Assembly: GCA_964518475.1 (NCBI GenBank)
Contig: CAZFGR010000005.1
Coordinates: 39,415-103,414 of the forward strand
Direction of reading: 5' to 3'
DNA length: 64,000 nt
Source: an uncultured Nitrososphaerota archaeon
GTDB lineage: Archaea > Asgardarchaeota > Njordarchaeia > Njordarchaeales > Njordarchaeaceae
The position numbers were made by a program, and so were the translations under genes. Of the stretch, positions 10,949-18,331 are shown one piece after another. Each line of letters begins with the position of its first letter. Position 1 is the first letter of the stretch. The notes under the pieces were generated by a model that did not search any database, was not told where the DNA came from, and saw nothing but the letters and a program-made list of their open reading frames with translations.

Positions 10949-11809
10949 TTGGTTTACATGAGAGAAGTCGAGGAGAAATTATTAGAATGGCTTAAAGTGG
11001 AGAGAGATCCAAGATTAGAGTTTATCGTAAGAACACTAGTCAGCTCTATGAAATCTGTGTGCGAGAAATGTATGGAAGAGAGAGATATAAACATCTTTGA
11101 GCCCCTATGCGAGGAGAGAGGATATCTTAACATCTTAATAGAAGCGGGGGTACCTAAGGAATACTTACCACGTTTCTGTTTTAAACGGAGAGGCACAGAA
11201 ATAACTAGGTTTCTCAGCAAAAAGCCTAATCCCCTACCAGTTAGAGACGCTAATTATTATCTTTCAGATTTTCTAGATCTTTTCTCGAGAAATCTTAGAA
11301 GATATTTCGAGAAAGGGGATTATAACGCTATAATAAATTATTTGAAGCAGAAATTGGAGGAATTTTGGGGAGAAGTATCATTTTTTAGATTATCGAAAGG
11401 GTTTATATGCCTCATTTTAGGAAAATTTGAGTCATTGATTTTGATAGATCCGACGCGCAATATAGTTAGGATAAATGTGGAGAAGAGTTTCCTATTTACC
11501 GCGGACGATTATATTGAATTTCTCGAAAAAGCTCTAAAGCTTGTAAAGATTGAATATAAAGTAATCCAGTTAATAGAAGGAGAGTTCTTCCTGAGGATTG
11601 AGTTGAATAATACGAAGGATCTTCCAGAAGAAACTCTGGAAAAACTAAAGGAGCATGGACTACTTAGTGTGAAAGTCTCTAATGGTAAAACGCATCTTCT
11701 CTTCAAGTTAATAGATCCTATGGATACCGTTCCCCCCTTTGATCTTGCAAATGTTTTAGGAATTCTTAAAATTATGACAAATTTATCAGGTGGTAATGAG
11801 AATGGATAA
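10949..11809 (+). CDS. Hypothetical protein with N-terminal four-Cys cluster
   Basis: CEKC...PLCEER...RFC; its 3' end overlaps the start of the next gene. Confidence 0.75.
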   Translation: MVYMREVEEKLLEWLKVERDPRLEFIVRTLVSSMKSVCEKCMEERDINIFEPLCEERGYLNILIEAGVPKEYLPRFCFKRRGTEITRFLSKKPNPLPVRDANYYLSDFLDLFSRNLRRYFEKGDYNAIINYLKQKLEEFWGEVSFFRLSKGFICLILGKFESLILIDPTRNIVRINVEKSFLFTADDYIEFLEKALKLVKIEYKVIQLIEGEFFLRIELNNTKDLPEETLEKLKEHGLLSVKVSNGKTHLLFKLIDPMDTVPPFDLANVLGILKIMTNLSGGNENG

Positions 11810-14800
11810 GAATCTCAGGGAGATTTATCTATTACTGGCTAAAAAAGGAGCAAAAACAATTAACGAACTCTCTATTCTCACTGGAAGAAGCATTACCGAG
11901 TTAGAACATTATTTAACGACCTTGGAGAAAGATGGTCTTATATTAAGACTTCTAGAACCCACTACGCAATTAATAGCTATTCCGCCTGCAAATGCTGTGT
12001 TATATTATCTAAGCGAAGCTATAAGGCTTATTAGGAATATCAGAGACCGGTTCAACAATGCCCTCTTAGCAACATCTGCCGCTATTCAGGAAATGGAGAC
12101 TTCTATTATTGAGAAAATTGATACGCAAGAGAGGGTTATTAAAGAGAGAGTAGATAGAGAGGTTCGAGAAATTAATGTGCAATTAAAAACGTTCATCGAT
12201 GCAACAAAAACAAACCTAAAGAAAGTTCTCAACGTTTTTGAAGAGACAAGAACCAATTTAGAGAGAGTTAGAGAACTAGCGGGAGAATTTCACGAAAGTT
12301 TTACCTCATTATCGACTAGGTTAAAGAAGTTATCCGAAGATATATTAACCACTTACAAAGATACGATGCACTCCATTTTTGTAAATTATCTCCAAGATAG
12401 TGAATCCGTTATTGGTCCAATTATTGAGAAGGCTAAGGAGTATTTAGAAGGTACAATTTCTCTACTAGACACAACAGCTAAGAGAATCAATGATGTTAAC
12501 GTACTAATTAGTCGCAATACTGACATATTGCTAAGATCGCTTGAGCGTGAGAAAAAGGAGAGTTTTGATAAGTTACATGAAGCGTTAAGCAAGGCAAGAG
12601 CATCTACAATCTCATTTTTAGACAACATCGCAACATCCCTTTACCCATCAATAGAGAAATCTTTGAGCACAACATTTGATGCACTCATAGATTCTATCAC
12701 AAGCTCATTTACTGTGGCCCTCAGCCAGTACGAAACAGCCGCTAAAATCCTTGTTGAGGATATGAGAGAACGTTGGGATAGTATAACTACCCTTTTAAGA
12801 ACTCAAGCAGAATCGTTACTAACCTCTTCCCTTAATGCATTTAATGAATTAGGGAAAGATACTAAAAAAGAGGAGGAGACGTTTTTCGAGGTTCTAAACA
12901 AGATACTAAATACTTTCAATACTAAAGAGAAGAAGCTAAGAAACATAATGGATTCGACTTTTCGAGTACTTATTGAGGAAATTAGAGGATTAGAGCCTAC
13001 TCTAATTGAGTACTTCGATAGAGTAAGAAACGAATGGCTTGAATATTACCAAGAGATTCAACTTACTGCAACGAATTATATTTCTCAACGCTACGATGAC
13101 TTAAGAATATCAATAAGCAACCTAATCGAGGATCTAAATAATGTCCAAGAGAAACTAGTAGGGGAGATAAAAGAGTATTATGAATCAAGCGTAAAAGCTA
13201 GTTTAGATTCTCTCAAGAAAGCATTAGAAGCAATAAATGAATTAGCCTTGACAGTATCTGAAGATTTTAATAATAGCGTTAAAGCGGTCTTACCTGAACT
13301 TGAAGATAATGTAGCGCGTTCTATAGATGCGACGAATAATGAGTTAAGAACGAAGCTCTTGAACATTTCTCGAAAATTCACGAGTATAATAAGCTCAAGC
13401 TCTATTAAAGCTGAAAGATTGCATAAAGAGCTTCTCGAGAAAATCCGAGAGTTAAGCAGGGAGGATGCTACTCAACTTGACAACGCATTAAAATTCCTAG
13501 AATCGCAGGGAATAGAGTTTTCCTCCGAGCAGAAAAAGTATCTAAACAAGATAAAGAGATCCATGATTTACAGAAACAGAGGTATTATCTCGTTAGTAAA
13601 TAAGTTTTTCAACGAGTACAAGCAATCCCTAGCTAGACTGACCGAAGAAATATTGCTCGAAATAAACAAGTTCTCAGCAAGTTTTTCAGAATATCTAAAA
13701 GAACTATCTAAGGACATGCTGTCATCTCTTGAACGAAGTCTATCATTTAGTATTTCTAGAGTTCAAAACAATTACAATCAACAAGTTGAGCGAATGAAAA
13801 ATCAAATTAATTCACAACTACAGCTTTTAACTACGATTTCTGAAGAAGCGCTTAAAAGAATTGATTCTGATTTAAAAGACTATATAAGAAACACAACATC
13901 AAATTTAGAAGATCTTCTAGAAAGAGAGAGGGAGTTTCAGAAAGAATTAGTTAGTAATCTATCCAAAGCTGCTGAGGAATTGAATTCAATAATTACCGAG
14001 AGATTGAAAGAGACAAGAAAACAGCTAAGCTCTCTGATTGAAGATTACTTGTTAAAATCTCAAGGAATAACGAAAGGAGAAATCCTGCGCGAAATCGAAG
14101 AACTTAAACAGAGTCTTGAAAAAGAAGTCACGGAGGTCAAAAATAAATTAGGAGATTATTACAAGCAAGTAAACTCGGTTATTGAGAAAAATATTTTGCG
14201 CATAAAAAATGCTCTTGAGAACATAGAGAACGTCCTAAAAGTTGCTGAATCAGAGATAAGTGAGAGCATTAAAAGATTTAATAAAACAATATCAGCCAAC
14301 TATCAAACTATTCGGGAAAATCTCGAGAATCGTAGGACAGATCTTGAGAACTTATTCAATGAGAAGACGAATATACTTAAGGAGAAATTGGATAGAAGCT
14401 TAGCGGAGCTTAAAGATACTATAGAGAATAGCTTTGACAAGATCTTAGAGGATCAGAAGGCTCTCGTAAATGAGATACTTGAGAAAATCAAGCAACCAAT
14501 AAATTCGCTAAACGATCGAATAGCCAACAGAATTTCAGAGTTAGTGAGTGACATAAATGAAGCTTTAAGAAGCTTAAAAGAGAGAGAAAGCACATTTCTG
14601 CAGGAATGGGAAGAAGCAAAGGAAAGCATAAATCAACAGTTAAGTGAGTTAAGAAAATCTCTTGATGAAAACGTAAAAGCGAAAATGGATACAGCTCTTA
14701 AAGCCCTTAAGGAACAAATTGAGAAGATGTTTGAAAAATACGATGAAATGGAGAATCTACTAGAAACTACAAATAAGGTACTTGACGAAAACGAAGAACA

Positions 14801-15455
14801 ACTAAATCAACAATTCCTAAACTCTATCACTAATATGGAGAACAAATTAAGCGCCTTAACCAATAATTTAAGAGAAACCTTATACAAAGACTATAATATA
14901 TACCGTAATCTGTTGAAGGAGATCATTGAAAAGGGCCTTGATGAGTTCCAAAAATCTTTAAAGACAAAAATTGAGGATTCCCAAGAGCATTTAAGTGCCC
15001 ACTTAGAGAAAATAGAGAATGATTTTAACTATGCTAAAGATCTTTCTCAAAGTTTCATACAAATCATTAAAGAGAATGCGAGTAAAGCACTTATCATAAG
15101 AGATAAGGATAGCATTGTCACTAAAATAATTGATATCATAACGAGAGTGAGGGAGAAGATAGCCATAGCATCTCCAGTTCTCACGCAGCAAATAATCGAT
15201 GCCGTTAAAAAAGCTAGTGAACGAGCAGTTATCGAGATAATGATCCCCAAAGGTTTAGAATTGCCGGAAGAACTACTAAATGAGAACATAATTATTCGCG
15301 TAATAGAGAGAGAGTTACCCGTGGCACTAATTCTGCGTGATGACGAGGAAGTGTTGGTGGGATTAATGGATGCGGGAGAGGAATTAGCGGTACTAACCTT
15401 CTCCCAAGCGAGTGTCCAGATGATGAAGCTACTGCTAAGGGCTTATCTAAAATAA
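11790..15455 (+). CDS. TrmB-like wHTH + ~1000-aa helical repeat region + TrmB/PLD-like C-terminal domain
   Basis: N-terminal EIYLLLAKKGAKTINELSILTG...LEKDGLI...AIPP; 11-residue periodicity in the middle; C-terminal IITRVREKIAIASP...LILRDDEEVLVG. Confidence 0.8.
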   Translation: MVMRMDKNLREIYLLLAKKGAKTINELSILTGRSITELEHYLTTLEKDGLILRLLEPTTQLIAIPPANAVLYYLSEAIRLIRNIRDRFNNALLATSAAIQEMETSIIEKIDTQERVIKERVDREVREINVQLKTFIDATKTNLKKVLNVFEETRTNLERVRELAGEFHESFTSLSTRLKKLSEDILTTYKDTMHSIFVNYLQDSESVIGPIIEKAKEYLEGTISLLDTTAKRINDVNVLISRNTDILLRSLEREKKESFDKLHEALSKARASTISFLDNIATSLYPSIEKSLSTTFDALIDSITSSFTVALSQYETAAKILVEDMRERWDSITTLLRTQAESLLTSSLNAFNELGKDTKKEEETFFEVLNKILNTFNTKEKKLRNIMDSTFRVLIEEIRGLEPTLIEYFDRVRNEWLEYYQEIQLTATNYISQRYDDLRISISNLIEDLNNVQEKLVGEIKEYYESSVKASLDSLKKALEAINELALTVSEDFNNSVKAVLPELEDNVARSIDATNNELRTKLLNISRKFTSIISSSSIKAERLHKELLEKIRELSREDATQLDNALKFLESQGIEFSSEQKKYLNKIKRSMIYRNRGIISLVNKFFNEYKQSLARLTEEILLEINKFSASFSEYLKELSKDMLSSLERSLSFSISRVQNNYNQQVERMKNQINSQLQLLTTISEEALKRIDSDLKDYIRNTTSNLEDLLEREREFQKELVSNLSKAAEELNSIITERLKETRKQLSSLIEDYLLKSQGITKGEILREIEELKQSLEKEVTEVKNKLGDYYKQVNSVIEKNILRIKNALENIENVLKVAESEISESIKRFNKTISANYQTIRENLENRRTDLENLFNEKTNILKEKLDRSLAELKDTIENSFDKILEDQKALVNEILEKIKQPINSLNDRIANRISELVSDINEALRSLKERESTFLQEWEEAKESINQQLSELRKSLDENVKAKMDTALKALKEQIEKMFEKYDEMENLLETTNKVLDENEEQLNQQFLNSITNMENKLSALTNNLRETLYKDYNIYRNLLKEIIEKGLDEFQKSLKTKIEDSQEHLSAHLEKIENDFNYAKDLSQSFIQIIKENASKALIIRDKDSIVTKIIDIITRVREKIAIASPVLTQQIIDAVKKASERAVIEIMIPKGLELPEELLNENIIIRVIERELPVALILRDDEEVLVGLMDAGEELAVLTFSQASVQMMKLLLRAYLK

Positions 15456-15501: not shown

Positions 15502-16803
15502 TTATATGAACCAAGGAGCAAATTTTTCTAGTTCTTCCCCATCTATACTCAACTTCATATGACCAAATTGGATACTGGTAACAGCGTCTAAACGTGCTCT
15601 AGTAAATACTAATAACTTTTTCTCTCTTGGGTTAAAATCAAGAATGATCCCTAGACCCAAGAATTTCCCAGCGCGATCGTGTAGAGAGATTAATAAATTT
15701 CTAACATTGTCAGGGGTTACTGCGAAAATCTCTCTCTTATTAAGTCGTCTCTTTAATTCTTCAAGCACCTTAGGAGCTGGTTTATTCTCAGTTATTATCA
15801 GAATAGAATCCCAAGATTCCTCAATGTAAATGTCTTGAATATCTCCCAGAAGCTCCATAAGAAGATTTAAAGTCTCCTCTGTAGGGCTTCTTCCAGTACC
15901 TAAAAAGCCATAAGAAACATTGACATCATTTAGATCAATTACTACCTCTCTAGCATCTGTGAATTCTTTTAGGTACATCATTTTTCTAAGTTCTCTCCGT
16001 TCTTCCCAATTCCTAACCCTCAATCTAGGGGCTGCTGGAACTTTATATATTTCTCCGCTATACCCTATCAGTGATTTTTCGAGATAAGAGAGTTCTCCCG
16101 CATCTTTTTCAATAAACACAATAAGATCTGGTTGGACGACACTTATTTTTCCGATCTTTAATTCCCGGCCCCATCGATCACCTACCCACCCCGTAGTATC
16201 TATAAGGATTACGTCTACCCCAAGCTCCTTCGCTCTCTGAACCATCCTATAAGTTCCGATAATTGACCTATTAAGCACACCTGCAGGCGTGACAGAGCCA
16301 ACGAAAAAAGCGTCTTGTAGGGGTATCTCTGAAAGATGGATTATAGGTTTCTCAACAAGTCCTAAACCAATGGTAGTTGGCGGACCAATATCGCTCTGGC
16401 CTACATCAGCGTCTATAACAGCTACTTTCTTCCCTGACTTGAGCAAATAATTGGCTAGAAAAGTAAGCAGACCAGTCTTGCCTGTGTCTACGTTCCCTAT
16501 AGTCATAACGGTATATCCATTGCCCCTATTAAGTAGTTTTTCTCCTAGTTCTCGCCACTCCCTCGGAATAAGACTCTCCTTGCTCTCCGCTATATAGCCA
16601 TCTTCAAAATCAATATTTAATAACGCATTTTCTAACACACGAACAGGCGCTGATCGATACTTAGGCACACTAATTACTGATCCCGTCTTATAATCAGCGC
16701 CGAATATCTCTATTGAACCATTGAGTACCTCGATAGTTACCTCACCGACCACAAATAACCATGAATCCTTTGCACATTCAATTTTCACCCTAAAACACCC
16801 CAA
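15502..16803 (-). CDS. Clp1/Grc3/Nol9-family polynucleotide 5'-OH kinase
   Basis: GNVDTGKT, DADVGQSDIGPP and DTTGWV motifs; RRELR lid segment. Confidence 0.92.
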   Translation of the reverse strand: MGCFRVKIECAKDSWLFVVGEVTIEVLNGSIEIFGADYKTGSVISVPKYRSAPVRVLENALLNIDFEDGYIAESKESLIPREWRELGEKLLNRGNGYTVMTIGNVDTGKTGLLTFLANYLLKSGKKVAVIDADVGQSDIGPPTTIGLGLVEKPIIHLSEIPLQDAFFVGSVTPAGVLNRSIIGTYRMVQRAKELGVDVILIDTTGWVGDRWGRELKIGKISVVQPDLIVFIEKDAGELSYLEKSLIGYSGEIYKVPAAPRLRVRNWEERRELRKMMYLKEFTDAREVVIDLNDVNVSYGFLGTGRSPTEETLNLLMELLGDIQDIYIEESWDSILIITENKPAPKVLEELKRRLNKREIFAVTPDNVRNLLISLHDRAGKFLGLGIILDFNPREKKLLVFTRARLDAVTSIQFGHMKLSIDGEELEKFAPWFI

Positions 16804-17008: not shown

Positions 17009-18283
17009 TTACTCATACTGAATTCTACGTGCTATTCCTAAGTCAAAGTATTTATCGATTTTGAGTATGATCCAGAACAAGAAGGTTCCAAAGAAAATCT
17101 CAAGTATGCCCGTCAGGAAGTATCTCATCGCAGCTACTTGCCATGCTGGTATTTCATACTGTCCAGAAGCACCAAATATTGTAAACTCTGCGGTAAGACC
17201 AGAGGAGACATAGCCCCATCCTGGCCATGCCACTCCTACTATTGTTGCACCGAATAACGCGGTCTGTAAAGCAGCTATTAACGCGAAGAATACTCCGCTA
17301 ATGAAGGAGAATATGAATATTTTACGGGGGTTCATTTGGAAAGCGTAAGCTGCGACTATTCCCGCTAATAAGCCAAAGATATCCATTATTGGTATGAAGA
17401 TGCTTACTCTCACGGGTGCTTTAAGTTGAACCCCAGTTAGCCACCAGATAAAGTTAAAGAACAGTTTCTCATTGTCCTTATATTGAATATAGGCGGAACC
17501 GAGACCAGAGAGTGGACGGTCACTAAACATTCTTGAGCTTCCACATACGATAATTTTGCCTTTTCCAGTATCTATTGCGACGAGCCAGGGAAGAGAACCC
17601 CTCGCGTGGGGATTACCATTGGCATCCGCAGCATAAGATGTTGGTGGAGTCGTAGCTACAATAATTTTCGGATCTTTCACAATTAGTGATGCGCTAGTTG
17701 TAACGATTTCTTCGATCCCAACACTTATAATGTGGGGCTTAAAATAGTCGGCTGTAACAACTACTTGCCAGGGTCTTCCAGCAACATTGGATGTATCATC
17801 ATATAACTCATCACCATTATTATTGCTTCCCCAGAATATAACCTTGTCTACTACACCAAGAGAGGCTAGTAGATTATTCAAATAATCTGGTTTTCCATAG
17901 GTGCTGCCATAGTACGCCACATCTCCCAAGATTATTACTCCTTTCCCCGCATCAACGAATTGTTTAATAAGATCCAGCTCCTCAGAACTAAAGTCTTGGG
18001 TTCCAGGATTAGGAATCACTAGGACATCGAATTGTAAGAGCTCTTCTAAGCTAGGTAGAGCTTCGCTTGCATTATATTTCTCCACAACAACTCCTTGACG
18101 GATCAAATCACTTATGAGGGTACTATACAGAGCGGTTGAGTAGTATTGACCAGCACTCTCTCTGAAGATGATTTTTATCTCCGTTTCTTGGGATCTTAGA
18201 ACAGTTTGTGATGGTGCTATAAAGACGCTTAGAAGTAGGAGAAATGCCATAGCGATGAATAATTTCCTCAAAAACATCACCAA
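17009..18283 (-). CDS. Membrane protein with extracellular GIFT/DUF4350-like domain and C-terminal TM helices
   Basis: Signal peptide; FDVLVIPNP...FSSEELDLIKQFVDAGKGVIILGD and DNEKLFFNFIWWL; about 3 C-terminal TMs. Confidence 0.8.
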   Translation of the reverse strand: MVMFLRKLFIAMAFLLLLSVFIAPSQTVLRSQETEIKIIFRESAGQYYSTALYSTLISDLIRQGVVVEKYNASEALPSLEELLQFDVLVIPNPGTQDFSSEELDLIKQFVDAGKGVIILGDVAYYGSTYGKPDYLNNLLASLGVVDKVIFWGSNNNGDELYDDTSNVAGRPWQVVVTADYFKPHIISVGIEEIVTTSASLIVKDPKIIVATTPPTSYAADANGNPHARGSLPWLVAIDTGKGKIIVCGSSRMFSDRPLSGLGSAYIQYKDNEKLFFNFIWWLTGVQLKAPVRVSIFIPIMDIFGLLAGIVAAYAFQMNPRKIFIFSFISGVFFALIAALQTALFGATIVGVAWPGWGYVSSGLTAEFTIFGASGQYEIPAWQVAAMRYFLTGILEIFFGTFLFWIILKIDKYFDLGIARRIQYE

Positions 18284-18331
18284 TAAGTTATATTGCTAAG
18301 AAAAAAATAGAGAAAAAGAAGAATTAATAAG

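Follow-up and report, generated by a model that had tools for sequence, protein, structure and literature searches.

This report concerns a gene in a 64,000-nucleotide stretch of DNA from an uncultured archaeon of the Njordarchaeales (GenBank assembly GCA_964518475.1, contig CAZFGR010000005.1, positions 39,415 to 103,414 of the forward strand; the whole stretch is called the window). The encoded protein, referred to here as the rod protein, carries a domain of the TrmB family at each end, and the two are separated by about 1,030 residues with a hendecad (11-residue) periodicity. In its architecture, the rod protein represents a new variant within the TrmB family, and the variant is widespread in Asgard archaea. 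With a probability of about 0.5, we propose that it is a TrmBL2-like, non-enzymatic architectural protein, whose hendecad rod would fold back into an arm of ~75 nm with a structural role in the nucleoid or in tethering. Coordinates are given in Table 1, and residues are numbered from the GTG codon listed there.

Both terminal domains are of the TrmB type

With the N-terminus of the rod protein alone, scores stayed below the Pfam cut-offs (TrmB, 16 bits vs 25.6; HTH_24, 19.7 bits vs 21.9). The N-termini of relatives exceeded the TrmB cut-off with 50.8, 38.7, and 29.9 bits, and a 23-member N-terminal profile matched TrmB (3QPH) with an E-value of 3.8e-14 and TrmBL2 with 7.8e-12. Matches of the same profile to other winged helix-turn-helix (wHTH) families, including the MarR type, had E-values of at least 1e-5. 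The TrmB-type wHTH that an earlier note on this DNA had read from the letters was thus confirmed at the level of the family profile. In TrmB, Tyr50 and Asp51 in the recognition helix contact DNA (PMC4158304). TrmBL2 keeps both residues, whereas the rod protein has Glu and His at these positions, which are variable across the family. The recognition helix of the rod protein has a net charge of -2.

Profiles of the C-terminal domain, made from 14 and then 32 members, gave TrmB and TrmBL2 as the best PDB matches (3QPH, E 2.2e-4; TrmBL2, E 0.0024) and PLD-like FAM83 as the next. Regulator_TrmB (PF11495) was matched by 6 of the 14 members. The structure was predicted by AlphaFold2 (AF2) in a monomer run on residues 22-1221 with a 19-sequence alignment. 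In the model, the domain has the order beta-alpha-beta-alpha-beta5-alpha, with a predicted local distance difference test score (pLDDT) of 70-84. A Foldseek search with this domain returned TrmBL2 first (E 1.8e-8), followed by NucT, FAM83, Nuc, F13/PLD3, and TrmB. In a structural scan of 48,161 chains (VIA), TrmB 2F5T ranked at the top with a Z-score of 17.3 and a root-mean-square deviation of 1.8 A over 120 residues; 3QPH (Z 16.8), NucT (15.8), and TrmBL2 (14.6) ranked below it.

The HxK(x)4D motif was absent from all 32 family C-domains. The rod protein has no HxK anywhere and no His in residues 1098-1221, so the description in the earlier note, a TrmB/PLD-like domain without HxK, holds. Asp1184 is invariant and Glu1187 is near-invariant in the family C-domains (RDxEE). 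The alignment spans only residues ~105-218 of 3QPH, and residues 119-262 of TrmBL2. The chain does not extend beyond the final helix of the PLD-like domain, and the beta-barrel sugar-binding subdomain of TrmB (Gly320/Glu326) is therefore absent. This subdomain is likewise absent from TrmBL2 (PMC4158304).

The middle region has a coherent 11/3 periodicity

The rod protein is rich in Leu, Glu, Ile, and Lys, and is acidic overall, with an isoelectric point (pI) of 5.2. It contains 12 Pro in total, and the middle region, described in the earlier note as nearly proline-free, has five of them in residues 71-1097. Fourier analysis of the hydrophobic residues from 75 to 1090 gave a single sharp peak at 3.66 residues (11/3; 3.67 expected) with a power of 21.9. 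The maximum power of shuffled rod sequences was 1.28 +/- 0.31, and that of the real rod at a period of 3.5 was 0.02. When the thirds of the rod were analyzed separately, each peaked at 3.65-3.67, and the power of the whole rod was about the value expected under full phase coherence. The hendecad periodicity is far beyond chance. The 11-mers by which it had been recognized (LKEKLDRSLAE/LKDTIENSFDK and those that follow) were found at approximately residues 865-930.

When the rod was folded modulo 11, positions 1, 4, 5, and 8 were hydrophobic (48-60%), which matches the a/d/e/h core known from hendecad coiled coils. Phase coherence extends over residues ~150-960, and the hydrophobic face is broad, taking up five of the 11 positions. 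No rod columns were conserved beyond this periodicity. Neither a Walker A pattern nor an SMC/ABC-type match in Pfam or NCBIfam was detected in the rod protein, and there was no transmembrane-like segment or lipid-anchor signal (19-residue hydropathy maximum, 1.10). These results agree with the earlier statement that the protein is not an SMC ATPase.

Several features of the rod are symmetric about a predicted central helix break

AF2 predicted five very long helices of 333, 171, 176, 36, and 282 residues. Thus, the rod is not made of bundles of short helices, and the compact folding of the middle region that would have spoken against a rod was not seen. The segment lengths are symmetric around a helix break at residues 573-578 (333 / 171 / apex / 176 / 325). 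The pLDDT climbs to 63-73 around this break, which is the highest local confidence in the rod. Residues 480-640 of the model superpose on helix-loop-helix hairpins, namely designed hairpins (516-594) and the 'Maxi' antifreeze hairpin (159 residues, 479-638). Some rigid superpositions of the C-domain take in residues 2-14 of the model as well, which implies that the modelled termini lie next to each other.

A conserved Gly-containing break lies at the symmetry centre, with Gly574 in the rod protein and Gly571 in the ortholog from the congener genome G002. Further evidence does not depend on AF2. The most basic patch of the rod protein is formed by residues 579-600 (net charge +6, pI 10.6), and each of the six Njordarchaeales members analyzed has its strongest basic window close to the midpoint. 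The top conserved rod island was at the midpoint in three lineages, at residues 602-605 (68% identity), 621-629, and 635-659. In three ortholog pairs at ~33% identity, the rods are essentially free of insertions and deletions (indels); the one gap of the pair that includes the rod protein, of 3 residues, is outside the rod.

In this same pair, the substitution-score profiles of the two rod halves are mirror-correlated, with the best centre at residue 573 (z 2.76; P 0.005 for a centre set in advance). With a Jordarchaeales pair, the mirror centre was at residue 600 (P 0.0075), which coincides with that pair's own Pro/Gly cluster at 598-610. Furthermore, the largest hendecad register shifts mirror each other, at residues 149/986 and 380/761, and imply centres at 568-571. 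Mirrored register shifts recur in four Njord orthologs of 20-34% identity.

The coiled-coil helices of the two TrmB subunits pair antiparallel (PMC4158304). Therefore, antiparallel pairing about the centre of the rod is a natural extrapolation. Given the break at the centre, a hairpin within one chain (~75 nm) is favoured over two chains paired head-to-tail (~150 nm). Of the earlier proposal of a rod of up to 150 nm, the helical region of about 1000 hendecad residues stands, and the end-to-end length becomes an upper bound. An antiparallel fold-back at residues 573-578, which would bring both TrmB-like domains to one end of a ~75 nm arm, is thus supported, but not proven, by the model together with the sequence features.

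The family is present in nearly all Asgard genomes examined

The ortholog in the same genus has 1218 amino acids (aa) and 34% identity to the rod protein. The flanking genes have 59% and 70% identity, which shows that the rod protein is fast-evolving. A paralog class of ~726 aa and many proteins of 1,070-1,540 aa have in common the wHTH, the C-domain, and a period of 3.64-3.67. When the C-domain profile was used in an exhaustive HMMER search, 760 representative clusters (50% identity) were found, 372 of them at E <= 1e-10. Among the top 150 of these clusters, 90 have at least 640 aa, and all 90 peak at 3.62-3.68; the family HTH is at the N-terminus in 81. The C-domain family was detected in 293 of 301 Asgard genomes, with one to seven matches per genome.

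The length of the proteins ranges from 666 to 1907 aa among the clusters examined, and the C-domain is always at the extreme C-terminus. Within lineages, in contrast to the family as a whole, rod length is nearly fixed. Several paralogs per genome are common, each of a distinct and tightly conserved length; for example, 25 clusters of <50% mutual identity have 1295-1302 aa. A class of 1794-1797 aa (family f14) is kept within 3 residues across many genomes (e.g., G023:C29, G067:C38, and G073:C11), and family f18 has forms of 1393 and 1545 aa.

The genome of the rod protein itself encodes a short paralog of 710-726 aa on another contig (C12; L013:1264-3393, + strand) with the same 11/3 rod and C-domain, in which the Pfam TrmB HTH is significant (38.7 bits). 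This short class (711-732 aa) recurs in related genera. Within the short flanks examined, no conserved neighbour of the 726-aa paralogs and no gene resembling the partner described below was found.

In public databases, the relatives are named 'hypothetical protein', 'helix-turn-helix domain-containing protein' (Freyarchaeota, Sigynarchaeota) or, automatically, 'sugar-specific transcriptional regulator TrmB'. No published description of this architecture was found in the full-text literature searched. Word-indexed homolog searches returned the rod protein itself and one partial relative labelled Candidatus Methanomethylicota. A 424-aa partial sequence with this label (P0012) matches the C-domain with an E-value of 2.6e-42, and it is either a rare occurrence outside Asgard archaea or a binning or labelling issue.

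The rod gene is coupled to a gene for a 4-Cys protein

The gene directly upstream ends 8 nt inside the rod gene. Its product, referred to as the partner, contains four invariant Cys residues, C38, C41, C54, and C77 (CxxC-x12-C-x22-C), and matched no Pfam or NCBIfam family. In G002, the partner ortholog is the flanking gene of 59% identity mentioned above. The partner is present in 214 of the 301 Asgard genomes, mostly with a single match per genome. It lies directly upstream of long-form rod genes in several families, and orthologous gene pairs from other lineages either overlap or adjoin each other. Among 20 sampled genomes, which belong to diverse families and include a closed genome of 1.4 Mb, 14 have a rod-family gene (836-1310 aa) immediately downstream of the partner. 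In families f12, f14, and f18, no rod gene adjoins the partner gene. Phyletic co-occurrence of rod and partner is not discriminating, because the C-domain profile detects all paralogous subfamilies, and families that lack the partner still score.

The AF2 model of the partner is confident (pLDDT 87; predicted template modelling score (pTM) 0.84), and a Foldseek search with it gave no significant match. In the VIA scan, residues 181-286 matched a generic alpha/beta sandwich only (Z <= 8.1), with an aminotransferase small domain, type III secretion system chaperones, and the MotA C-terminal domain among the matches; no specific fold is assigned from them. By itself, the partner is an uncharacterized and widely conserved Asgard protein.

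Proposed arrangement and its alternatives

In the arrangement that we propose, the dimerisation helix of ~30 residues that TrmB has between the wHTH and the PLD-like domain would have been expanded to ~1,030 residues of 11/3 coiled coil. The rod would run out for ~500 residues, turn at the Gly-containing break beside the basic island, and return antiparallel, and the wHTH and the PLD-like domain would meet at the foot of the arm, where they would form a TrmBL2-like head. Such a topology would be SMC/Rad50-like without an ATPase. The breadth of the a/d/e/h hydrophobic face suggests that a four-helix rod may arise from two paired hairpins. The rod protein is probably co-translated with the partner. 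Its head could attach to DNA or chromatin, and the arm could present the apex and/or the partner to other DNA, to other arms, or to a cellular structure. The length of the arm would be under strong selection, and the role would be nucleoid organisation or tethering, not sugar-responsive control of transcription. The data establish what the domains are, the periodicity, how the family is distributed, the conservation of length, and the linkage of the two genes in an operon; that the rod protein binds DNA and is architectural is our inference.

Several observations weigh against this arrangement. The overall confidence of the AF2 rod model is low (pLDDT 56, pTM 0.30), and the scan-wide significance of the mirror centres is weak, with P 0.09 for the pair that includes the rod protein and 0.095 for the Jordarchaeales pair. 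A crude mirror correlation of Pro and Gly gave scattered values. A family-wide apex motif was not found, as an iterated hidden Markov model that started from the apex island strayed to generic repeats. The partner is without an adjacent rod gene in 6 of the 20 sampled genomes. As the recognition helix is acidic and lacks Tyr50/Asp51, DNA binding by the head is uncertain. In family f9 (L049, L055, and L066; 1299-1302 aa), the rate-mirror centre is at residue 501 (scan-wide P 0.01) and the register-shift centres are at 493-499, ~120 residues before the midpoint of the rod. The f9 centres agree mutually but not with the midpoint, and thus the topology may differ between subfamilies. Periodicity-amplitude dips and lists of Pro and Gly likewise gave no consistent midpoint feature across distant orthologs. 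Separately, f9 has a second mirror peak near residue 849, which may indicate a different, perhaps three-segment, rod topology.

Among the alternatives, an intermolecular antiparallel homodimer ranks highest in probability, but we consider it unlikely. Two extended chains would lie head-to-tail as a rigid spacer of ~150 nm that bridges two DNA segments, and each end would be a composite head made from the wHTH of one chain and the PLD-like domain of the other. The antiparallel pairing of the TrmB subunit helices comes with swapped DNA-binding domains (Phe81/Ile91' and Phe84/Leu88'; PMC4158304), and such a dimer would explain the mirrored rates, the mirrored register shifts, and the indel intolerance equally well. 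Moreover, pairing between chains is beyond an AF2 run on a monomer, which would fold the chain back artificially. The central break argues for the hairpin instead: it contains Gly and sits at the symmetry centre, where a continuous dimer needs no break, and it is modelled as a hairpin with the best local confidence in the rod.

A parallel, in-register homodimer of ~150 nm, in which both wHTHs share one end and both PLD-like domains the opposite end, would correspond to the rod of the earlier note and would tether DNA to a distant partner, for example the membrane; chromatin bridging and a DNA-attached filament were the other possibilities named in that note. A long hendecad region with few breaks, the ruler-like conservation of rod length, and the lack of a family-wide apex motif are all compatible with it. 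It is nevertheless improbable. A parallel dimer would tolerate 11-residue indels, yet none were found at 33% identity, and it predicts neither the mirrored rates and register shifts nor the midpoint break with its conserved island and AF2 hairpin. In addition, the TrmB coiled coil is antiparallel, and a transmembrane or lipid-anchor signal is absent.

The rod also matches the Pfam family Apolipoprotein A1/A4/E (PF01442) in 7 stretches with 96.3 bits, above the cut-off of 90 bits. ApoA-IV in the PDB is matched with an E-value of 8.5e-7, and ApoLp-III and phasin are matched weakly. These matches, together with the broad hydrophobic face, would suit 11-mers that lie flat on a lipid or another hydrophobic surface, as in apolipoproteins, perilipins, or phasins, so that the protein would be a coat of membranes or lipid particles with a TrmB-like head. 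We regard this as distinctly improbable. The Pfam match is best explained by the common 11-mer periodicity and composition. With only five Pro, the rod has no Pro-punctuated 22-mers, and the charge around the helical wheel is only weakly of class A. Its columns are not conserved beyond periodicity, and a surface-bound helix needs neither the strict indel intolerance nor the mirrored features.

An ordinary ligand-responsive TrmB transcription factor with a long linker of no specific function is very improbable: both terminal domains are of the TrmB family, and one public pipeline named a 1794-aa relative 'sugar-specific transcriptional regulator TrmB', but the sugar-binding subdomain is absent, Tyr50/Asp51 are not conserved, the gene is coupled to a conserved partner, and rod length and register are under strong selection in 760 clusters and nearly all Asgard genomes.

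Comparison with known systems

TrmBL2 of the Thermococcales (PDB 5BPD/5BQT/5BOX) resembles the rod protein in its wHTH, helix, and PLD-like C-domain, and in lacking the sugar-binding subdomain. It differs in its length of 264 aa and in its linker helix of roughly 40 residues vs ~1,030 in the rod protein, which, unlike TrmBL2, also has the conserved 4-Cys operon partner. As a component of the nucleoid, TrmBL2 assembles into stiff filaments and causes SMC to stall (PMC11840125; PMC4158304). TrmB of Pyrococcus/Thermococcus (3QPH, 2F5T) is the best structural match of the C-domain and the best sequence match of the wHTH, and it has an amphipathic coiled-coil helix after the wHTH (PMC4158304). Unlike the rod protein, TrmB has the beta-barrel sugar-binding subdomain; the coiled coil of the rod protein is ~30 times longer, and the DNA-contact residues differ.

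As in SMC, Rad50, and MukB, the globular parts from the two chain ends are probably brought together by a long coiled coil that would pair antiparallel within the chain and have a specialized apex. The tightly conserved arm length and the discontinuities matched on both strands are further likenesses. In contrast to these proteins, the rod protein has no ABC ATPase head, its head being the TrmB wHTH and the PLD-like domain. Its register is hendecad, whereas theirs is mainly heptad, and its fold-back is an extrapolation from the model and the mirrored features.

Hendecad (11/3) coiled coils, such as the tetrabrachion stalk and the peripheral stalk of A/V-ATPases, have a period of 3.67 and form straight or slightly right-handed bundles, and Scy and FilP are long bacterial rods. 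Neither the hendecad stalks nor the Scy/FilP-type rods have a DNA-binding head or homology to the rod described here, and the ATPase stalks are far shorter. Apolipoproteins A-I, A-IV, and E (PF01442) have tandem amphipathic 11-mers like the rod; the rod protein differs in that it is not Pro-punctuated, is cytoplasmic and archaeal, and has TrmB domains at both flanks. The resemblance is most likely a convergence in periodicity.

To our knowledge, TrmB proteins are small regulators or, in the case of TrmBL2, nucleoid proteins, and none with a hendecad arm of ~1,000 residues has been described. A wider proposal, which is possible but more doubtful than the one made for the rod protein itself, is that Asgard archaea near-universally have ATPase-less SMC-like arms. 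These would consist of a TrmBL2-type head, a length-calibrated hendecad coil of 50-130 nm, and a functional apex, with a metal-binding partner in one subfamily, and would serve nucleoid organisation or tethering. If this is true, the arms would form a class of chromosome-architecture proteins that had gone unrecognized in prokaryotes. Should the arm be a length-calibrated chromatin element, it would bear on genome organisation and tethering in the closest prokaryotic relatives of eukaryotes. Cultured Asgard strains would allow a direct test, if they carry members of the family. For structural work, the rod would also be a naturally occurring hendecad coiled coil that is very long and in register.

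The rod gene and its neighbourhood

Table 1. Positions in the window of the rod gene, its encoded regions, and the partner gene
Feature	Position	Strand	Details
Partner gene	10949..11809	+	286 aa; likely ATG start 10958; stop overlaps start of rod gene
Rod protein gene	11790..15455	+	1221 aa counted from GTG 11790
TrmB-type winged helix-turn-helix	11802..11999	+	Residues ~5-70; family profile vs TrmB 3QPH
N-arm of hendecad rod	11988..13505	+	Residues 67-572; AF2 helices 67-399, 402-572
Putative apex	13506..13655	+	Helix break 573-578 (ESQGIE, Gly574) and basic conserved island 579-622
C-arm of hendecad rod	13524..15080	+	Residues 579-1097; AF2 helices 579-754, 773-808, 816-1097
TrmB/TrmBL2-type PLD-like alpha/beta domain	15081..15452	+	Residues ~1098-1221

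The open reading frame of the rod gene has 1221 codons without an internal stop. Its real start is probably ATG 11802 (Met5). The public gene call begins at this codon and gives 1217 aa, and the sequence GGTGG is found at 11790-11794, 7 nt 5' of it. Language-model look-alikes of the rod protein are archaeal clusters with TrmB, most commonly from Promethearchaeota (Asgard), and a search for loci related to the region of the rod gene returned three Njordarchaeota loci only. No tRNA or Rfam features were detected in the window. Promoter and terminator scans used bacterial-type models and are uninformative for an archaeal host.

The neighbours of the rod gene in the window are archaeal, and include FEN1/XPG, a Clp1-type P-loop kinase, a CitMHS transporter, and large surface proteins with GIFT/Ig domains. 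The Clp1-type P-loop polynucleotide kinase homolog (15502-16803, - strand) is 70% identical to the copy in G002. There, the kinase and rod genes share a strand, but here they are convergent, which indicates a local inversion between the congeners. Two tandem genes for proteins of ~940-960 aa (18332-24207, - strand) encode IFT52-GIFT / ABC_transp_aux and Ig-like (Big_7, CARDB/DUF11) domains, and a third GIFT-type gene (424 aa) is at 17009-18283. Together, the GIFT/Ig genes at 17009-24207 resemble a cluster of large surface or secreted proteins.

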